Shown: positions 7,090 to 56,939 of the stretch, in pieces
Numbering within the stretch: position 1 is the first letter of the stretch
How the letters are laid out: each line of letters starts with the position of its first letter
Origin: Chloroflexota bacterium
Lineage (GTDB): Bacteria > Chloroflexota > UBA5177
DNA length: 64,000 bases
NCBI GenBank assembly: GCA_036752825.1
Contig: DAIORV010000003.1
Span: 3,674 to 67,673, forward strand
Direction of reading: 5' to 3'
Position numbers and translations under genes: made by a program
Notes under the pieces: generated by a model
Told to the model about the DNA's origin: nothing
Databases searched by the model: none
The model's input: only the letters and a program-made list of their open reading frames with translations

Positions 7090-8254
7090 CTTCTGCCAGG
7101 ATTGCGGCGACCTCGGGTCGAGTGAACTCCGCGGGCGGGAGATCTCCGGCACGAAGCATTGCTCGAACCTCGGTTCCACTAAGGTTCATGCGATGCTCCG
7201 GCCCATGCGGGCAGGTTTTCTCAGTCGCATGGTTGCCGCAGACCCGGCAATAGAATGCGTTCTCGAAGAACAAAGGCTGAATGCCAAGCTCGCCCGCGGC
7301 GAACTCGGAAAAGATGTGCTGTGCATCGTACGGACCGTAGTAGCCGCCGACTCCCGCGTGGTCGCGACCGACGATGAAGTGGGTACAGCCGTAGTTCTTA
7401 CGTATCAACGCGTGAAAGATTGCCTCACGCGGCCCACCATACCGCATCGCGGCCGGGTTGACGGCGAGCAACACGCGATCCGCGGGGTAGTAATCAGCGA
7501 GCAGGGCTTCGTACGACCGCATTCGCACATCGGCGGGAACGTCATCGGACTTGGTAGCGCCCACGAGCGGGTGCAAGAGCAGGCCATCGACGATCTCCAT
7601 CGCAGCCTTTTGCATGTACTCGTGCGCGCGGTGGACAGGATTGCGCGTCTGAAACCCGACGATCGTGCGCCATTTCCGCTCCGCAAATATTCGCCGGGTC
7701 TCGGCAGGCGGATGATAGTGCTTGGGAAAGGCAGGGGACGGTAGGGGTCCAAACACCCGCACTCGTCCGCCAACGGCGACTTCTCCCTCGGCGTAGAGTG
7801 CCGCGACTCCGGGGTGTGCCTCGTCGGTCGTACGATAGACCTTTTCGGCCTCTCGCTCTTTGTCTCGCTTGAATACTTCAGCTACTTCGAGGACGGCGAA
7901 CGCGCTGCCGTCGAGCGCCAGTGCGATCCTGTCGCCTGCACGCGTGGACTGGGCATTATCCGCTTCAAGGGAAAGCGCGATCGGGATCGTCCAGGGGATT
8001 CCGTTGGCAAGCCGCATCTCGTCCACGACGGAGTCATAGTCGGCACTTCCCATGAAGCCGGTAAGCGGGCTATAGCCACCGATGGCCAGCATTTCGACGT
8101 CGGACGCTTCTCGGGCGTTGAGATTTCGGACCTGCAAGGAGCGAGCTTCCTCCTCGATCTGGCCCGCTTCGCTCTTGGGAAGCTGCAAATTCACGAGTGC
8201 TCCCCCATGGGGTGAGGCGCCGAATTGTTCTCGCTCGATTACAGATGTAGACAC
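7076..8254 (-). CDS. sat: Sulfate adenylyltransferase (ATP sulfurylase), stand-alone type without APS-kinase domain
   Basis: SPHGGALV, GYSPLTGFM, FQTRNPVHRAHE, MRYGGPREAIFHA, NYGCTHFIVGRDHAG, SGTEVR, FTRPEV. Confidence 0.97.
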   Translation of the reverse strand: MSTSVIEREQFGASPHGGALVNLQLPKSEAGQIEEEARSLQVRNLNAREASDVEMLAIGGYSPLTGFMGSADYDSVVDEMRLANGIPWTIPIALSLEADNAQSTRAGDRIALALDGSAFAVLEVAEVFKRDKEREAEKVYRTTDEAHPGVAALYAEGEVAVGGRVRVFGPLPSPAFPKHYHPPAETRRIFAERKWRTIVGFQTRNPVHRAHEYMQKAAMEIVDGLLLHPLVGATKSDDVPADVRMRSYEALLADYYPADRVLLAVNPAAMRYGGPREAIFHALIRKNYGCTHFIVGRDHAGVGGYYGPYDAQHIFSEFAAGELGIQPLFFENAFYCRVCGNHATEKTCPHGPEHRMNLSGTEVRAMLRAGDLPPAEFTRPEVAAILAEAMKD

Positions 8255-8257
8255 GAT

Positions 8258-9889
8258 TTACAGATACCCCCATCCCTTCAACTTTTCTTTGATCTGATTC
8301 TCTTCGTCTTGAGTCAGAAACGACTCCGTCGACTGAGGTGTGAGCACCATATCCAGCTCTTCGACCTCGCGCTCGCTCTCGTTGAATATCTCCGTCAAAA
8401 CCCGGCCATCCATATCGACAGGCACGCCTAGCCCCATGGTGTGCAATATCGTCGGAGTCATGTCGATAAGGCATGCATCGGCGACAGTGGTACCTGCTGT
8501 TATCCCCGGTCCCCTCGCGAGCAAGATTCCCTTCTCATCATGCGACCCTGGAACCTGTCGGAGCTCGTCAAATGGAACATGTCCAACCACCGGGCCTTGC
8601 GCCAGAGGTCCTTCCTTGTACATCTCTTTGCACCAGACAATGATGTCGGGCGAGCGCTCTGTAAATTCGCCCTGAAAGAGCTCCTCGCGCTTGAAGGCGC
8701 GTTCCACGATCTTCTCCCCCGTATGTGGATCGCGGAGCTCCAGCACGTCGCGAATGATGCGGTTACGGAGAGCCTCGTAGTCGTCCGGAGCGACCGTGCC
8801 CAGCTGCTGGCGGCCGCGAACATTTATCACGATGCCGGCCAACGGCGGACACTTCATGGGGAAGTGGTACGCCTGAGTCTGACCAAAGTCAATCTCCTGA
8901 AGCGCTCGCCACATAGTCTTCAACCCACCCTGTGCTCCCTTCGGGAGGTTGCGACGCAGCATTGAGCGGAGCTTGGCCGGCATGACCTTCTGGTTCAGCG
9001 CATAGATTCTTTCGTTGAAGGACTTTGCCTGAGCCTTCGGAGCAAGCAGTCCTTGCTGCGCCAACCACACGTTGAGGTTCAGCTGGCGGGGAGGCGTAAT
9101 ATTGCCGCCGTGGTCCGAAATCACAAAAATCGTGTCGTCTGGACCGAGGCGCTCGAGGGTCTCTCCCAGCGCCTGGTCCATCTTTCGATAGAAGCGATTA
9201 ATGACGTCGCCCCAGCGTCCAGCCGCCTGCGGATCGTAGACCGGCGTGCGCTGGTCCACGAACCCCATGAAGAAGTGGTGAATCTCATCCGAGACCCTGT
9301 GAACCGCCATGAAAAAGTCGTACTGCTTTTCCATCAGACGGTTGATCAGGTTGCTCATTCGCTCCATTTGGTCGTCGAGCGCCTGTACCTGCTGTTCAGT
9401 AGTCAGCAGTCGGAAATCTCCCTGTTCATCCGGAGAGGCCTGGTCACCAAGCTGTTCCCGAAGCTCGGGAGGATAGAACGAGTCAGGTGTGTCTCCCGGC
9501 GTCGGAAAGCCCGAAACCATGAGGCCGTTGACTGGCCACGCTGGAAACGTCATCGGCACTCGAGCGGCGCATACCGTGCCTCCAAGCTTGCCGACGATAT
9601 CGAAAATCGTTTGCTCGGCGAAGTACCGGGAGTTGGCGATGCGACCTACGTATTCGTAGCTAAGGGCGTCGTAGTCCTGGAACATATAGACGCCGTGCTT
9701 TCCGGAATTCTTTCCGGTCATAAAGGTGACCCAGGCGGCTGCGCTTTGAAAGGGCACGGTTGAGATAAGCTCGCCGGAGGCTCCGTCCTTCATCAGAGAC
9801 TCGAAGTTAGGCATCTCCCCACGCTGGACAAGCGGCCGGATGAAGCGCCAGGTGGCTCCATCGAATCCAATGACGTAGACTCGCCTCAA
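8258..9889 (-). CDS. Cytoplasmic alkaline phosphatase superfamily protein (type I phosphodiesterase-like, Ser nucleophile)
   Basis: TTG start with AAAGGAG RBS. Motifs IGFDGATW, STVPFQSAAAWVTFMTG, SDEIHH, ISDHGG, GSHDEKG. No signal peptide. Confidence 0.88.
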   Translation of the reverse strand: MRRVYVIGFDGATWRFIRPLVQRGEMPNFESLMKDGASGELISTVPFQSAAAWVTFMTGKNSGKHGVYMFQDYDALSYEYVGRIANSRYFAEQTIFDIVGKLGGTVCAARVPMTFPAWPVNGLMVSGFPTPGDTPDSFYPPELREQLGDQASPDEQGDFRLLTTEQQVQALDDQMERMSNLINRLMEKQYDFFMAVHRVSDEIHHFFMGFVDQRTPVYDPQAAGRWGDVINRFYRKMDQALGETLERLGPDDTIFVISDHGGNITPPRQLNLNVWLAQQGLLAPKAQAKSFNERIYALNQKVMPAKLRSMLRRNLPKGAQGGLKTMWRALQEIDFGQTQAYHFPMKCPPLAGIVINVRGRQQLGTVAPDDYEALRNRIIRDVLELRDPHTGEKIVERAFKREELFQGEFTERSPDIIVWCKEMYKEGPLAQGPVVGHVPFDELRQVPGSHDEKGILLARGPGITAGTTVADACLIDMTPTILHTMGLGVPVDMDGRVLTEIFNESEREVEELDMVLTPQSTESFLTQDEENQIKEKLKGWGYL

Positions 9890-25246: not shown

Positions 25247-26436
25247 GCCGGCGACCTCGAAACCGAGAGATCGTTAAGGGCCATAAGCTTTGGTACGACA
25301 CGTCTTAACGTCTCCATGCGCTTGGGAAACGCTATGCGCACCTGACCTCGGCCAAACTCGGGTTTGCTATAAAAGCTGCTGCCCGGCACCACGGCCACTC
25401 CGACATCCTCTACCAGGAGGCGAGCAAAGTCCACGTCCGATGCAAACCCGAGACCCGAGATGTCACACATGGTGTAGTAGGCGCCTCGGGGCGCGATGGG
25501 GCGAAGGCCCGCCTTTTGCAGTGCATCGATGATGAAGTCACGCCGTTCTTCATACGCGGCACACAGCTTGTGGTAGTAGGAATCGGGGAAGCTCATGGCC
25601 AGGGCGCCGGCCGCCTGTAGTGGAGCGGCCGCCCCCACCGTAAGGAAGTCATGAACCTTGCGAATCGCTGAGGTGAGGTCTGCGGGGGCGATCGCGTATC
25701 CCACTCTCCAGCCGGTGACGCTGAAGGTCTTCGAGAGGCCGTTGATGAGCACGGTACGCTCGCGCATGCCGGGCAGAGTCGCAATCGAAACGTGCTGCAG
25801 CCCGTCGTACACCATGTGCTCGTAGATCTCGTCAGCGAGAGCGATCGCGTTCCACCGAACGCATAAAGTCGCGATGAACTCGAGCTCATCTCGAGAAAAG
25901 ACCTTGCCGGTGGGGTTGTTCGGGGTATTCAAGACAATCGCACGTGTCCGGTCGCCGAACGCGGACGCAAGCTCATCCCAATCAAAGGACCAGTCCGGCG
26001 CACGCAGAGACACGAACTTCGGCGTCGCGCCGGAGAGTATGCAATCCGGCCCATAGTTCTCATAGAACGGCTCTAGAATGATGACCTCGTCGCCGGGGTT
26101 GACGATTGCAAGCATGCTGCTGATCATCGCCTCGGTTGCTCCACAACAGACGGTTATCTCAAGCTCAGGGTCGATATCGAGTCCAAGCCAGCGCTTGGTT
26201 TTTGCCGCTATACCATCACGAAAATCCTTGGCACCCCACGTGATCGCGTATTGATTGACATCCCCCTGGATCGCGGCAGCTGCTGCGTCTTTCAGCTCCT
26301 GCGGCGCCGAAAAGTCCGGGAATCCCTGCGCCAGGTTCACGCCGTCATCCGGGTGATGCACTGCCAGCAGTCGGGTCATCTCGCGGATTACAGACTCTGT
26401 AAAGCCGTTAGTTCGATCCGCCACTCGACCGGTCAT
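25243..26436 (-). CDS. Class I/II PLP-dependent aminotransferase
   Basis: NLAQGFPDF, NTPNNPTG, DEIYEH, SKTFSVTGWRVGY. Confidence 0.93.
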   Translation of the reverse strand: MTGRVADRTNGFTESVIREMTRLLAVHHPDDGVNLAQGFPDFSAPQELKDAAAAAIQGDVNQYAITWGAKDFRDGIAAKTKRWLGLDIDPELEITVCCGATEAMISSMLAIVNPGDEVIILEPFYENYGPDCILSGATPKFVSLRAPDWSFDWDELASAFGDRTRAIVLNTPNNPTGKVFSRDELEFIATLCVRWNAIALADEIYEHMVYDGLQHVSIATLPGMRERTVLINGLSKTFSVTGWRVGYAIAPADLTSAIRKVHDFLTVGAAAPLQAAGALAMSFPDSYYHKLCAAYEERRDFIIDALQKAGLRPIAPRGAYYTMCDISGLGFASDVDFARLLVEDVGVAVVPGSSFYSKPEFGRGQVRIAFPKRMETLRRVVPKLMALNDLSVSRSPA

Positions 26437-51477: not shown

Positions 51478-53943
51478 TTACCCGGCAGGTCCGGCGGGTG
51501 GCTGCCAGCTACTCTCGAGACCGGGCAAGAGCACGGCATCGAAATGGGCGTAATGCATCACGTCTGCGACCGCCGGAAGCTCTAGAAGTGCCTGTTTCAT
51601 TACCTCGTCCATGTGGTCAACCGGGAGGAGCTCCATTTGATCTCGAACGTCCTCGGGAATGTCGTCCACATCTTTCAGGTTCTTTTTGGGGAACAGAACC
51701 GTGCGCACGCCGGCACGATGAGCTGCCAGAACCTTCTGCTTTAGGCCTCCGATGGGGAGTATGTGGCCCCGGAGGGTTATCTCGCCGGTCATTGCCAGGT
51801 CGCGGCGCACCTTCCGCCCGGAGAGAGCGCTGACGAGAGCCGTGGCCATGGTTATTCCCGCCGACGGTCCATCCTTCGGAATGGCGCCGGCAGGCACGTG
51901 GATGTGTACTGCGTGCTCTTCAAAGGCGCTCGGCTTTATTCCAAGCTCTCTGGCTCGAGAATGGACGTAGCTCATGGCGGCGCGAGCCGACTCTTGCATC
52001 ACGTCGCCAAGCTGGCCGGTAAGGATGAACTGGCCTTTGGCGTCCATCAAGGTGACTTCGACCGGTATGACGTCTCCGCCCTCGTCGGTAACGACGAGGC
52101 CCGTGGCGACGCCTATCTCGTCCTTCTCCTCGGCCAAGCCCCAGGTGAAGCGAGGTTTTTTGAGATACGTCTCGACGTCGGTCGCGTCCACCGTCACGGT
52201 GGTGGCGCCTTCCTCGGCATAGCGGCGTGCAAGCTTGCGGCAGATGGTTGCGATCTCACGCTCTAGCTGCCTTACGCCGGCCTCTCGCGTGTACTCGCGA
52301 ACGATCTTCTGCATTGCCTCGCGAGAGATGGTCAGCTGCTCTTCGCTGATCCCGTGGAATGGCTTCTGTTTGGGTGCCAGGAAGCGCTCCCCAATCTCCA
52401 CCTTTTCGACCTCGGTGTACCCGGCGAGCTCGATGATCTCCATGCGATCGCGCATCGGCTCGGGAATCGTCCAGAGGACATTAGCGGTCGTGATGAAGAG
52501 AACCTTAGACAGGTCGAATGCGACCTCGAGGTAGTGGTCCTGAAAGTCGGTGTTCTGCTCCGGGTCCAGGACCTCGAGCAGAGCTGACGACGGGTCGCCG
52601 CGGAAATCGTTGCCGACTTTGTCTATCTCGTCCAGCATGATGACGGGATTGTTCGATCCGGCCTGCCGGATCGATTGAATAATGCGCCCTGGAAGGGAGC
52701 CGATGTACGTCCGGCGGTGGCCGCGGATCTCCGCCTCGTCGTGCACACCGCCGAGTGACATGCGGGCGAACTTCCGTCCCAGCGCGGCGGCAACCGATTT
52801 GCCGAGACTCGTCTTTCCAACTCCCGGAGGCCCGACGAGGCAGATGATGGGACTGCGGAGCTCGGTTGCCAGCTTGCGGACCGCGAGATGCTCCAGAATT
52901 CGTTCCTTCACGATCTCGAGTCCAAAATGGTCTCGATCGAGCTGCTCGGCAGCGGCCTTGATGTCCAGCTGGTCGTCCGTGCTGACCGACCACGGCATGC
53001 CCACGAGCCAATCGAGGTAGGTGCGAATCATTCCGACCTCTGGGGAAGCCGCGGGCATTCGCTCCAACCGGTCAACCTCTTTGAGGGCCTTCTCTTTGGC
53101 CTTCTCTGGCATTTCGGCTTCGTCGATCTTGGTTCGCCACTCAGCAGCTTCCGCCTGCTCGGGATCGAGCTCTCCCAGCTCGCGCTGAATCTCTTTCATT
53201 TGCTCACGGAGAAGATACTCGCGCTGCGTCTTGTCGATGTTCTTCTGTACTTCGCTGGAGATCCGCGTCTTGAGCTCCAGAACCTCGACTTCTTCCGACA
53301 GGAGCTGGTGAGCCCGGCGCAGGCGCTCGAGCACGTCGATCGCCGTCAGAAGGTCCTTGCGCTCATCAGGATTTAGCTCGGGCATGTGTCCGACCAGGTC
53401 GGCCAGCCAGGCGGGATCTTCGACATCTCTAACATTTGAGAGGGCGTCAGCGGGTAGATTGCCTCGCAGGTTTATGTACTTGGTGAAGAGCTCTTTGACC
53501 GCTTCCATGAGCGCGGTCAGCTCTTTCGTATCGGACACTTCTTGCGAGATGACCTCGACCTCTACCTCGAGATACGGCTCGGTTTTGGTGAAATTGAGCA
53601 CGCGCACACGCTGCTCTCCTTGGGCCAGCAGCTGGACGCTTCCATCAGGCAGCCGGAACATGGGGCCGATAGTGGCCAAGACGCCGACGTCCATGAGGTC
53701 GTCCGGGCCTACCTCTTGTTTCGCCGCATCATTCTGGGTGACCAAGATGATGCGGTGCGGCCGCTGCTTCACGGCTTCATCCACGGCGAGCAGAGACGGC
53801 TGTCGCCCGACCTGAATGGGCTGCATCATATGCGGGAACACGACCGTTTCGAACAGAGGAAGTACCGGAAGACGTAAGTTCTTCTCGAGCTGGTCGTCTT
53901 CTTCAGGGATGGTTGGTTCAGTCATTCGAAGATCCTTGTTCAT
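51478..53943 (-). CDS. lon: Lon protease
   Basis: [46 protein letters not shown]. Confidence 0.98.
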
Positions 53944-54047: not shown

Positions 54048-54072
54048 GTGCGTGGTTTAGTATACCACGCAC
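54048..54072 (-). promoter_or_regulatory. lon extended -10 (TGgTATACT) embedded in a perfect 9-7-9 inverted repeat
   Basis: GTGCGTGGT-ATACTAA-ACCACGCAC on the minus strand. Confidence 0.6.
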
Positions 54073-54103: not shown

Positions 54104-54138
54104 GCGGCCTGAGCCGACCATCCCGCTGCTTAGGCCGC
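54104..54138 (-). terminator. Hairpin spanning the selD stop
   Basis: GCGGCCTAAGC...GCTCAGGCCGC followed by AATCCTTT, one mismatch on this strand. Confidence 0.45.
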
Positions 54139-55170
54139 TACCGTAACGACTGTCTCGCCCGCCGGAGCCGCTACATGACCTACGCAGACGGCAATTGAAG
54201 CTCGCCCAATCCGTCGAATTAGACCCATTGCGGAGGCCTCCGGTAAGGCGATCAGTAGGCCTCCTGAGGTCTGAGGGTCGGCCAGCAAAAGCCGGGAGGT
54301 CTCATCGACTCCGTTCAGCCATCGCACCGATTCGGCAAGGTACTCGAGATTAGTGTGGGTGCCCGCCGGCGAGTATCCGCTCTTCGCATACTCTTCGGCG
54401 CCGGGCAGGAGCGGTACATCATGAGCCGAAATGTGGGCGTCAACTCCAGAGGCCCGGCAGACATCGAGAAGATGCCCTAGCAGCCCGTAACCCGACACAT
54501 CGGTACAGGCACTGGCGCCCGACACGACCATGCTCTCGCTCGCTGCGCGGTTCAGCTTCGTCATCCAGGCCACGGCGCTATTCGTATGCGCCCGCGACGC
54601 GGCCTGGTTCTTGAGGGCCGTGCCGACGACTCCCGTGCCAATGGGTTTTGTCAGGATCAACCTATCCCCGGGCTGCGCCCCTCGGGTCGTCACCATTGAC
54701 TTGGGTTCGACCGTTCCCGTTACGGACAGGCCATACTTCGGCTCCTCGTCGTCTACGGTGTGTCCGCCGATGATGCTGATTCCTGCTTCAGCAGCCATGT
54801 CCGCTCCGCCGCGCAAGATCGCCGTCAGCACATCTACCGGCAGCGTCTTTATGGGAAACCCGACGACGTTGAGAGCGTGTAGAGGGCGTCCGCCGACCGC
54901 GTAGACGTCGCTAAGCGAGTTTGCCGCCGCGATCCTTCCGAAGTCATACGGATCGTCAACTATGGGCGTGAAGAAGTCGACTGTCTGGACAAGGGCGAGC
55001 CGATCCGACAGCCGATAGACGGCAGCGTCATCAGCCGGATTGTCGCCAAGCAACAGATTGGCATCTGGACGCCGTGGGAGTTGACGCAACACGTGCGCCA
55101 GGTCAGTCTGGCTGACCTTGCTGGCTCAACCGGCGCAGCGCACGAGCGACGTAAGTCGCACAGGCTCCAT
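54130..55170 (-). CDS. selD: Selenophosphate synthetase, selenocysteine-containing (UGA at codon 15)
   Basis: AAGGAGGAG RBS, then MEPVRLTSLVRCAG-UGA-ASKVSQTDL in frame with the tracked ORF. Motifs DDAAVY, QTVDFFTP, AANSLSDVYA, GGHT, TDVSGYGLLGH, DPQTSGGLL. Confidence 0.96.
55097..55125 (-). ncRNA. Candidate bacterial SECIS hairpin immediately 3' of the selD UGA
   Basis: GCC-AGCA-AGGUCAG-CCAGA-CUGACCU-GGC, 10 bp with a 4-nt bulge, starting at the first base after UGA. Confidence 0.6.
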
Positions 55171-55191
55171 GGCTCCTCCTTCCATTGCTGT

Positions 55192-56259
55192 TCAGGCTCC
55201 GGAAACCGATGACTCGGCAGGCGTCAGCGCGGCCAAGACCGCGTCGACCAGCTTGTCCGCTCCCCCTTTGACCGGGTCGGCCCCGGGGAGGTCGGTTTCG
55301 GCTTCGGTCTGACGTACCGCTCGCGCGGCCTCCTGGTTTGAGAGACCCCTGGTGTTCAGTGCGATTGCCACTACGCGGGCAGGCTTGATCCATCCGGCAG
55401 CCTCTTCGTAAATCTGTATCACTCGAGGGAGGGAAGGAATGGTCACAGGATAGTCATCGATCTGCCGGTGACCTGGAGGGTGCACGAGAACCATGGCATC
55501 GGGAAGCGATCCATGCATGAGTGCTAGGGTGACGCCGGAGTACGCAGGGTGGAGGAGCGATCCTTGTCCCTCCACGAACACCCAGTCGGCGAGCTCGCAA
55601 GCTTCGACCACGAGGTTCTCGACGGCACCGGCCATGAAGTCGCCGATGGCGCGATCTATAGCTATGCCGCTGCCTTCCAACATGATGCCCGTCTGGCCGG
55701 TCGCGACGAAGGCGGTTGAGAGCCCGCGTGCGTCGGCGGCCTGCCGCATCTCCAGTGCTGCCGTCATCTTCCCAACCGCGCAATCGCTGCCGACGAATGT
55801 GATCACGTGAGAGCCGGCCCGATGTTGCAGCATCTCGGAAGTACTGAGATTCTCCGGAACGCGTCTCACGTCCACGATCTGGGCACCGTGTCGGCGGGCG
55901 AGCGCCTTGAATTCCGTGTCCTCCGCCATCATGTAATGCAAGCCATTAACGACGTCGACTCCGCTTTGGAGGGCCAGAGCTATTTGCCGGCGCCACTCCG
56001 GCGGGAGAAAACCTCCGCGGGTAGCAATTCCAATGAGAAGCTCGTCGGGCCGATATTTCAGCGCATCGGACATGTCGCCGACGATCGGAACTTGACCGCC
56101 AATGCCTAACACGTCCTGAGACACGGCTCCGGCATGGTGTGAGTCGACGATGGCTACCACATCGCTTGGGCGATATCTCAGGATGCTGGTAGCAGTCTTG
56201 CCATGATGGAAATCCAGCATTCCGTCGGCAAGAATCGCCATCGTCCGGCGCTTGCTCAT
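55192..56259 (-). CDS. DUF1611 family protein (DgcN D-glutamate N-acetyltransferase-like)
   Basis: KTATSILRY, LLIGIA, VVNGLH, GSDCAVGKMT, ATGQTG, DFMAGAVE, VEGQGSLLHPAYSG. Confidence 0.9.
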   Translation of the reverse strand: MSKRRTMAILADGMLDFHHGKTATSILRYRPSDVVAIVDSHHAGAVSQDVLGIGGQVPIVGDMSDALKYRPDELLIGIATRGGFLPPEWRRQIALALQSGVDVVNGLHYMMAEDTEFKALARRHGAQIVDVRRVPENLSTSEMLQHRAGSHVITFVGSDCAVGKMTAALEMRQAADARGLSTAFVATGQTGIMLEGSGIAIDRAIGDFMAGAVENLVVEACELADWVFVEGQGSLLHPAYSGVTLALMHGSLPDAMVLVHPPGHRQIDDYPVTIPSLPRVIQIYEEAAGWIKPARVVAIALNTRGLSNQEAARAVRQTEAETDLPGADPVKGGADKLVDAVLAALTPAESSVSGA

Positions 56260-56291
56260 TTGCTGCCTCGGTGGATCAGAATTTCTCCAGT

Positions 56292-56939
56292 TTATCCTTG
56301 CGTGCCGGGAGCCGGTGGCTCCTTGGCACGACCTCGTACCTCCTCGGGCAGCGTCTGTCGCCACACGTGCACTAGTCTCTGCACGGCGGTGAAATGGGTC
56401 AGGACGGCAAGAATCCACAGCGCAACGACGACCGTTTTCCCTGTCGCTGGACCAGGAAAAACGAGTCCTGCTCCGAGAATCAGGACGCGCTCGGGACGCG
56501 GAGCTATGCCCACCTTCGCGTCGAGCCCCAGACCTTCGGCGCGGGCACGCGCGTAGCTGATCATGATCGACCCGACTGCAACCGCGTACACGAGCACGGC
56601 CGTGCCGATGTGGTCCAGCTTTGCCTCGACGTAGAGCAGCCCGAGGAGGATGGCGCTTTCTGAATACCGGTCGAGCACGGAATCAAGAAAAGCTCCAAAG
56701 CGGCTGGGCCGGTTGATTACACGTGCCATTGCCCCGTCCAGCATGTCGAAAGCTGCGGAGAACAGCAGCAGCGCACCTCCGGTGCTCAGACGTCCGCTCG
56801 CTATGACGGCGGCAGTCAGCACGTTGAGTGCGAAGCCAACGATGGTAATGCTGTTGGGGGTGACCCCGAACCGCACCAATGGGCGTACGACCGCTTCGGC
56901 CGCTCCTCGGGCCCAATTCTGGACCGAAGCCGGGAACAC
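56292..56939 (-). CDS. pgsA: CDP-alcohol phosphatidyltransferase, phosphatidylinositol-phosphate synthase type
   Basis: TPNSIT, DMLDGAMAR...GAFLDSVLD, SYARARAE, RPER. Confidence 0.9.
   Translation of the reverse strand: MFPASVQNWARGAAEAVVRPLVRFGVTPNSITIVGFALNVLTAAVIASGRLSTGGALLLFSAAFDMLDGAMARVINRPSRFGAFLDSVLDRYSESAILLGLLYVEAKLDHIGTAVLVYAVAVGSIMISYARARAEGLGLDAKVGIAPRPERVLILGAGLVFPGPATGKTVVVALWILAVLTHFTAVQRLVHVWRQTLPEEVRGRAKEPPAPGTQG

Follow-up and report, generated by a model that had tools for sequence, protein, structure and literature searches.

The window analysed here, a 64,000-nucleotide stretch of contig DAIORV010000003.1 from an uncultured Chloroflexota bacterium, carries on its minus strand a selD gene with one in-frame TGA near its start and, directly behind this codon, two adjacent hairpins (Table 1). 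It is part of a MAG of 2.76 Mb in 249 contigs that is 91% complete. Genes from elsewhere in this assembly are located in Table 1 by contig (C) and position.

Table 1. Features of the selD locus (window coordinates) and other genes of the MAG connected with selenocysteine (contig and position).
Feature	Location	Strand	Description
selD coding sequence	54130..55170	-	346 codons and TAA; UGA codon 15 predicted to be read as selenocysteine
Shine-Dalgarno-like AGGAGGAG	55173..55180	-	contains AGGAGG; ends 2-4 nt ahead of ATG 55170
UGA codon 15	55126..55128	-	predicted site of catalytic Sec, corresponding to E. coli Cys17; C12-A-G-U15, then K18, corresponding to Lys20
GTG (Val27)	55090..55092	-	in the loop of hairpin 2; false start of mechanical ORF 54130-55092
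Hairpin 1	55101..55117	-	GGUCAG[CCAGA]CUGACC; loop begins at 15th nt after UGA (14 nt spacing)
Hairpin 2	55083..55099	-	GGCGCA[CGUGU]UGCGUC; loop begins 32 nt after UGA
selA	C1:55545-56870		profile match, 496 bits
selB	C3:69159-71000		331 bits in total; same contig as selD, ~10 kb off
tRNA-Sec	C11:22186-22281		72 bits; ARAGORN call SeC, anticodon UCA
FdhA	C98:1121-4249	+	TGA 1679-1681, ...ENQARI-U-HSSTVPGLG...
AhpC/TSA-family protein	C22, TGA 9409-9411	+	DFTGG-U-RSQL
AhpC/TSA-family protein	C19, TGA 25803-25805	-	GFF-U-PFC
AhpC/TSA-family protein	C17, TGA 7335-7337	-	GVT-U-GSC
Rdx/SelW-like	C101:473-757	-	CxxU
Rdx/SelW-like	C6:36378-36605	-	CxxU
DsrE-like	C66:6910-7272	-	VYV-U-GGC

The selD reading frame and its product

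The selD frame runs from ATG 55170-55168 across TGA 55128-55126 to a TAA stop at 54132-54130. Translated with TGA as U, it gives a protein of 346 residues, MEPVRLTSLVRCAGUASKVSQTDLAHVLRQLP..., in which the motif C12-A-G-U15-A-S-K18 holds a C12-x-x-U15 (CxxU) arrangement. The ribosome-binding site, the ATG, the TGA, the C-A-G-U-A-S-K motif and the CxxU formed with Cys12 had all been named in the initial annotation, and each was re-read directly in the sequence. The mechanical ORF list holds the gene only as 54130-55092 (320 aa), a call that begins at a GTG 12 codons past the TGA and from which the N-terminus is absent, in line with the earlier remark that the ORF track had missed selD. A strong Shine-Dalgarno sequence precedes ATG 55170 and none is present ahead of GTG 55092, and in a corrected annotation the start of selD should be 55170, not 55092. 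We place the start of translation at ATG 55170, an alternative in-frame ATG at 55185, which would lengthen SelD by five residues, being less likely.

The upstream neighbour, a DUF1611/DgcN-like gene on the minus strand (55192-56418), lies in the same reading frame as selD. Its TGA stop (55194-55192) is located just 21 nt ahead of the selD ATG, with ATG 55185 in between, and the frame shared by both genes contains two in-frame TGAs, of which only the second is followed by SECIS-type hairpins. On the other side, selD is separated from the downstream lon gene (51478-53943) by 186 nt, in which there is a 9-bp hairpin, GUGCGUGGU[AUACUAA]ACCACGCAC, at 54048-54072 of the minus strand. No U-run was found 3' of this hairpin, which could be a terminator-like or a lon-regulatory element.

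The read-through protein is a member of the SelD family. Two SelD equivalog models, TIGR00476 (393.5 bits, cut-off 125, match from residue 5) and NF002098 (354.3 bits, cut-off 299, match from residue 2), score above their curated cut-offs and together span residues 2-342; since both matches begin upstream of the TGA, they support selD as a gene that is read through at this codon. Structures of SelD from Escherichia coli (3U0O, E 2.7e-75) and Aquifex aeolicus (2YYE/2ZOD, E 3.1e-65) were matched as well. The N-terminus aligns with 3U0O without a gap and puts U15 on Cys17 and K18 on Lys20, which confirms the position first proposed for the TGA.

Conservation of the UGA codon and of the hairpins behind it

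A search for selD in 40 relatives of the same phylum, with stops read through, yielded 29 orthologues including the one of the window's own genome, with identities of 46-65% to the window's gene. A single in-frame TGA is present in 28 of the 29 and occupies the same alignment column in every one of these 28; the sole exception (L029) has TGC in this column. The surroundings of the TGA, 14 codons before and 12 after, are conserved as protein in the 28 relatives (RLTSLVRCAG-U-ASKV). When named genomes were scanned more widely, 80 selD loci of many phyla came up, with TGA at this position in 51 and TGC or TGT in 29, and the loci closest to the window's gene were those of Chloroflexota/Dehalococcoidia MAGs. 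With the TGA kept in 28 relatives, it is very unlikely to stem from an assembly error, and judged by these alignments the codon is a conserved feature of selD, neither an accident nor the mark of a pseudogene. One further locus concerns taxonomy: the selD in JAJPIP010000076.1, from the MAG 'Proteobacteria bacterium Centralia_MAG_338', is 61-62% identical to the window's selD; the phylum label is probably wrong, and this MAG apparently belongs to the same family as the window's genome.

For every relative the 57 nt behind the UGA were folded, which showed two adjacent hairpins, not one, and in the window these are one nucleotide apart. The initial annotation had described a hairpin immediately behind the UGA, and its CCAGA hairpin (hairpin 1) stands, while the second at 55083-55099 (hairpin 2) had been overlooked. 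Together both hairpins fold with -21.4 kcal/mol. For the single-sequence fold of the region, compared with shuffled sequences, the z value is -1.86 and 11 of 200 shuffles fold as well. The fold of the single sequence is not clearly above the shuffles, and the case for a structure therefore rests on covariation.

Covariation is strongest in hairpin 2. Across the 28 Sec-type sequences 95.8% of its cells are paired and four of its six pairs have changed on both sides, and it is the sole helix predicted in the phylum-wide RNAalifold consensus. Hairpin 1 is also present in distant relatives, with shifted registers, which is the reason why it is just 68% paired across the same 28 sequences when scored in the register of the window. 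Within the 18 class-level sequences both stems covary: pairing amounts to 100% for hairpin 2 and 85.7% for hairpin 1, with three compensatory pairs in each, and falls to ~27-50% when the partners are slid by 1-3 columns. Part of the compensation is found at synonymous sites, for example a change of His CAC to Tyr UAC that is matched by a change of Leu UUG to UUA. A possible longer lower stem for hairpin 1 (GCCA/UGGC) competes with hairpin 2 and was set aside.

The loops are less easily read than the stems. In hairpin 1 the loop letters are unconserved within the family (CCAGA, AUG, CAUGU, CCC, AAG and others). In hairpin 2 the GUG of the loop doubles as a conserved Val codon, so that conservation of this loop is confounded with protein constraint, whereas covariation of the stem is not. 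The Cys-type relative L029 has lost both hairpins, and over the wider set all six pairs of hairpin 2 are formed in register in 20 of 47 Sec-type selD genes as opposed to one of 29 Cys-type genes.

In the consensus bacterial SECIS (bSECIS), which goes back to the model of Zhang and Gladyshev (2005) and is summarised in a 2026 review (PMC13188914), the apical loop has 3-9 nt and the upper stem 4-16 bp; G occupies one or both of the first two places of the loop, usually with G or U after it, and the apical loop follows the UGA at a distance of 16-37 nt. Hairpin 2 agrees with all of these rules: its loop of 5 nt (CGUGU) closes a stem of 6-7 bp, G is second in the loop and followed by U, and the spacing of 32 nt is within the range, albeit at its long end; in the other selenoprotein genes of the MAG the best-placed hairpins are nearer to the UGA, at 16-25 nt. 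Hairpin 1 fails two rules, as neither of the first two letters of its loop is G and its spacing is 14 nt; with its closing G-C pair opened, the loop starts with G and the spacing is 13 nt. The CCAGA hairpin thus does deviate from the usual bacterial SECIS, in loop and in spacing, as was initially noted. The lineage-specific SECIS that had been proposed on this basis is not upheld, because the adjacent hairpin 2 fits bSECIS and all eight selenoprotein genes of the MAG have a canonical-type hairpin. In seven of the eight its stem has at least 6 bp; the background, taken from 951 true TGA stops of long ORFs, is 34% for canonical hairpins of at least 5 bp and 16% for those of at least 6 bp. The loops in the other selenoprotein genes are of the N-G-U type (GUC in FdhA, AGUUUC, AGUU, CGUGA twice, and GUG), and the GUC of FdhA becomes an fdhF-like GGUCU once the closing pair is opened.

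The layout with two hairpin positions occurs in Sec-type selD genes of many phyla. A canonical hairpin is found at position 1 or 2 in 75 of 77 distinct Sec-type genes, compared with 12 of 30 Cys-type genes. In 37 of the Sec-type genes the position-1 hairpin is absent or non-canonical, and position 2 is canonical in 35 of these. Both positions have a canonical hairpin in 21 of the 77, and some distant relatives have their canonical hairpin at position 1.

Selenocysteine machinery and further selenoprotein genes

The initial annotation had predicted selA, selB and selC in the genome and would have taken their absence as the sign of a pseudogene. All three were located (Table 1), with selA and selB intact, and SelB possesses a GTPase domain, a beta-barrel and the SelB-wing_2 and SelB-wing_3 domains. 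The selB gene (679 aa) is found just past the right end of the window, with a divergent sigma-54-dependent response regulator alongside, and a GT4 glycosyltransferase gene starts within its last codons. A second, Cys-type selD was not found in the 91%-complete MAG, where the sole other match was a distant, AIR-synthase-like one (E 6.7e-6). With no Cys-type selD found, the only selenophosphate synthetase of the cell would depend on its own product, as in other organisms with a Sec-type SelD. The search for tRNA 2-selenouridine synthase (selU, TIGR03167) gave no match above the cut-off in the same MAG (best 20 bits), which agrees with Zhang et al. (2006), who did not find the selenouridine trait in Chloroflexi. 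As far as can be told from the gene content, the use of selenium in this MAG is apparently limited to selenocysteine, without the selenouridine trait.

Beyond selD, at least seven genes came out of stop-read-through family searches and our own scan in which a single in-frame TGA falls on a position known for redox or catalytic function, and the suggestion that other selenoproteins lay hidden in this genome proved right. Four of them, FdhA and three AhpC/TSA-family genes, were found by the family searches only. FdhA matches the formate dehydrogenase model NF041513 with 1518 bits (cut-off 1400) and has an fdhF-like hairpin, GUGCCC[GGUCU]GGGCGC, 18-19 nt 3' of the UGA. The three AhpC/TSA genes have their TGA at the peroxidatic or UxxC position, each with a canonical-type hairpin 16-25 nt downstream.

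The home-made genome-wide scan for TGA read-through combined a hexamer coding score with hairpins. Its specificity was poor (2492 raw candidates), strict filters lost even selD, and its yield came to two Rdx/SelW-like genes and one DsrE-like gene. The Rdx gene of C101 has two consecutive hairpins after the UGA, like selD. Both the Rdx and the DsrE-like genes are patchy among relatives: the TGA is kept in two of three Rdx homologues, and the DsrE homologues there are without a stop and presumably Cys forms, a support that is thin. Several candidates of the scan proved false: a ThiS-type gene ending in GG-stop and followed by a BNR-repeat gene (C177), a HesB-like candidate with a normal Shine-Dalgarno sequence and GTG start after the TGA (C55), and a deaminase and a ferredoxin (C56 and C3) with just 4-10 doubtful codons upstream of the TGA.

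Searches of the 91%-complete MAG for thioredoxin (PF00085) and Fe-S_biosyn/HesB (PF01521) found no TGA-containing member, and the one for CMD/AhpD (PF02627) gave no match at all; at this completeness the list of selenoproteins is a lower bound. The families that were found (FdhA, AhpC/TSA, Rdx/SelW and DsrE) are all already catalogued in bacteria. Gene callers truncate or split these genes, at least seven in addition to selD, and their annotation needs mending. Taken at face value, these genes amount to a complete selenocysteine system in the organism and to a selenoproteome of moderately large size.

Reading of the recoding signal and comparison with known systems

The selD of the window is, with little doubt on the evidence of its sequence, a selenoprotein gene that encodes a Sec-type selenophosphate synthetase, with UGA codon 15 read as Sec. 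We infer Sec insertion at this codon as follows: translation would start at ATG 55170, and Sec-tRNA(Sec) brought by SelB would decode the UGA, placing Sec in the N-terminal glycine-rich loop, at the site of the catalytic Cys17 of E. coli and beside the catalytic Lys. Located within the coding sequence and immediately behind the UGA, the recoding signal would consist of the two adjacent hairpins, with hairpin 2 as the SelB-binding element and hairpin 1 as an accessory stem. Covariation of hairpin 2, its fit to bSECIS, the N-G-U loops of the other genes and the difference between Sec-type and Cys-type selD in canonical hairpins all point to hairpin 2 (loop CGUGU, 32 nt after the UGA) as the putative SelB-binding SECIS, and this assignment is probable. 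Hairpin 1 would be an accessory 'stem 1', possibly with a function in spacing or pausing. The likelihoods given to this and to the two other readings of which hairpin SelB binds are shares of the confidence that selD is a selenoprotein gene.

An unlikely reading is a bipartite signal in which both hairpins are needed; they might, for example, be coaxially stacked, or hairpin 1 might make the ribosome pause or keep it at a distance that lets SelB, bound to hairpin 2, reach the A site. The single nucleotide between the hairpins, the covariation of both, their joint loss in the Cys-type L029, the 21 of 77 Sec-type selD genes with canonical hairpins at both positions and the consecutive hairpins in the C101 Rdx gene are consistent with such a signal, as is the order of stem1 then stem2 that Supplement S6 of Mariotti et al. 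(2015) gives for Clostridiales selD. On the other hand, many Sec-type selD genes have just one of the two hairpins, and a second contiguous canonical hairpin is absent from five of the seven other selenoprotein genes of the MAG, while the second one in FdhA overlaps. It is doubtful that selD recoding in this Chloroflexota lineage, as in several other phyla, depends on the two hairpins as an obligatory unit. In such a unit hairpin 1, free in sequence and conserved in structure, would fill the space before an unusually distant (32 nt) SelB-binding hairpin, where it could serve to fix the geometry or to make the ribosome pause. If true, the unit could couple the translation of selD to the supply of selenium or SelB, and thereby autoregulate a self-dependent enzyme.

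Slightly less likely again is that hairpin 1, with its CCAGA loop and 14 nt spacing, is the SelB-binding SECIS and that the SECIS of the lineage is non-canonical, with no leading G in its loop. Hairpin 1 is nearest to the UGA and close to the geometry of E. coli fdhF (roughly 11-18 nt), its stem covaries among class-level relatives, and distant relatives and other phyla have a position-1 hairpin with canonical CGGGA or CGGGU loops, where hairpin 2 is sometimes missing. Against it stand the unconstrained loop letters within the family and the two published bSECIS constraints that hairpin 1 breaks. SelB has its usual winged-helix domains, and the N-G-U loops at 16-25 nt from the UGA in the seven other selenoprotein genes indicate that its specificity does not appear to be changed.

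That the TGA is a real stop, with selD either a pseudogene or expressed from GTG 55092 as a truncated protein without the N-terminal loop, is very improbable: it agrees with the mechanical ORF call and with a weak hexamer coding score (1.03) for the 14 upstream codons, but not with the protein-level conservation of the codons flanking the TGA, the retention of the TGA itself, or a strong Shine-Dalgarno sequence at ATG 55170 and none at the GTG, and it would cost the product the equivalents of E. coli Cys17 and Lys20 and, with a second selD not found, leave the Sec machinery and seven TGA-containing genes without a selenium donor. Equally remote is a UGA read as another residue, by a reassigned code or as Cys by a selC*-type tRNA-Cys(UCA) of the kind that exists in some bacteria and is able to translate a selD opal codon, for TGA ends 951 long ORFs and is a normal stop in this MAG, the sole UCA tRNA found scores as tRNA-Sec (72 bits; ARAGORN SeC), and selA and selB are intact.

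With hairpin 2 as the probable SelB-binding element, the signal is close to what has been described elsewhere. The FdhA hairpin of the MAG is similar to the E. coli fdhF SECIS in its GGUCU/GUC loop and distance from the UGA, and compared with fdhF and the bSECIS consensus the selD signal differs in a spacing at the long end and in an extra conserved hairpin that fills the gap. The same layout, stem1 then stem2, is depicted for the selD bSECIS of Clostridiales, another lineage, in the supplement to a study that followed SelD throughout the tree of life (Mariotti et al., 2015, Genome Res 25:1256, Suppl. S6, Fig. SM6.1A), a likeness at the level of the description. Sec-type selD, a signal that fits bSECIS and the tandem-stem layout (2015) are thus known, and the understanding of Sec decoding is unchanged; the point of modest interest is the role of the conserved hairpin 1.

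The protein itself has equally close counterparts. E. coli SelD (3U0O) is of the Cys17 type, with Cys where the window's gene has UGA/Sec, and shares the ungapped N-terminal loop, Lys20 and the remaining fold. In extent of distribution, Sec-type SelD ranks second among the prokaryotic selenoprotein families (PMC13188914), and the Sec-type proteins of Aquifex aeolicus, Desulfomonile tiedjei, Haemophilus influenzae and other Pasteurellales belong to the same family, TIGR00476. In these bacteria Sec is likewise located at codon 15 in the N-terminal G-x-G-U/C-x-x-K loop, as with D. tiedjei selD, in which codon 15 is opal, the SECIS is likewise inside the coding sequence directly 3' of the UGA, and the genes are routinely truncated by gene callers. 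The Cys at -3 (CxxU) in the SelD of the window is common to many relatives. Compared with the known Sec-type SelD proteins, the host alone differs, an uncultured Chloroflexota bacterium whose nearest relatives have ~60-65% identity.
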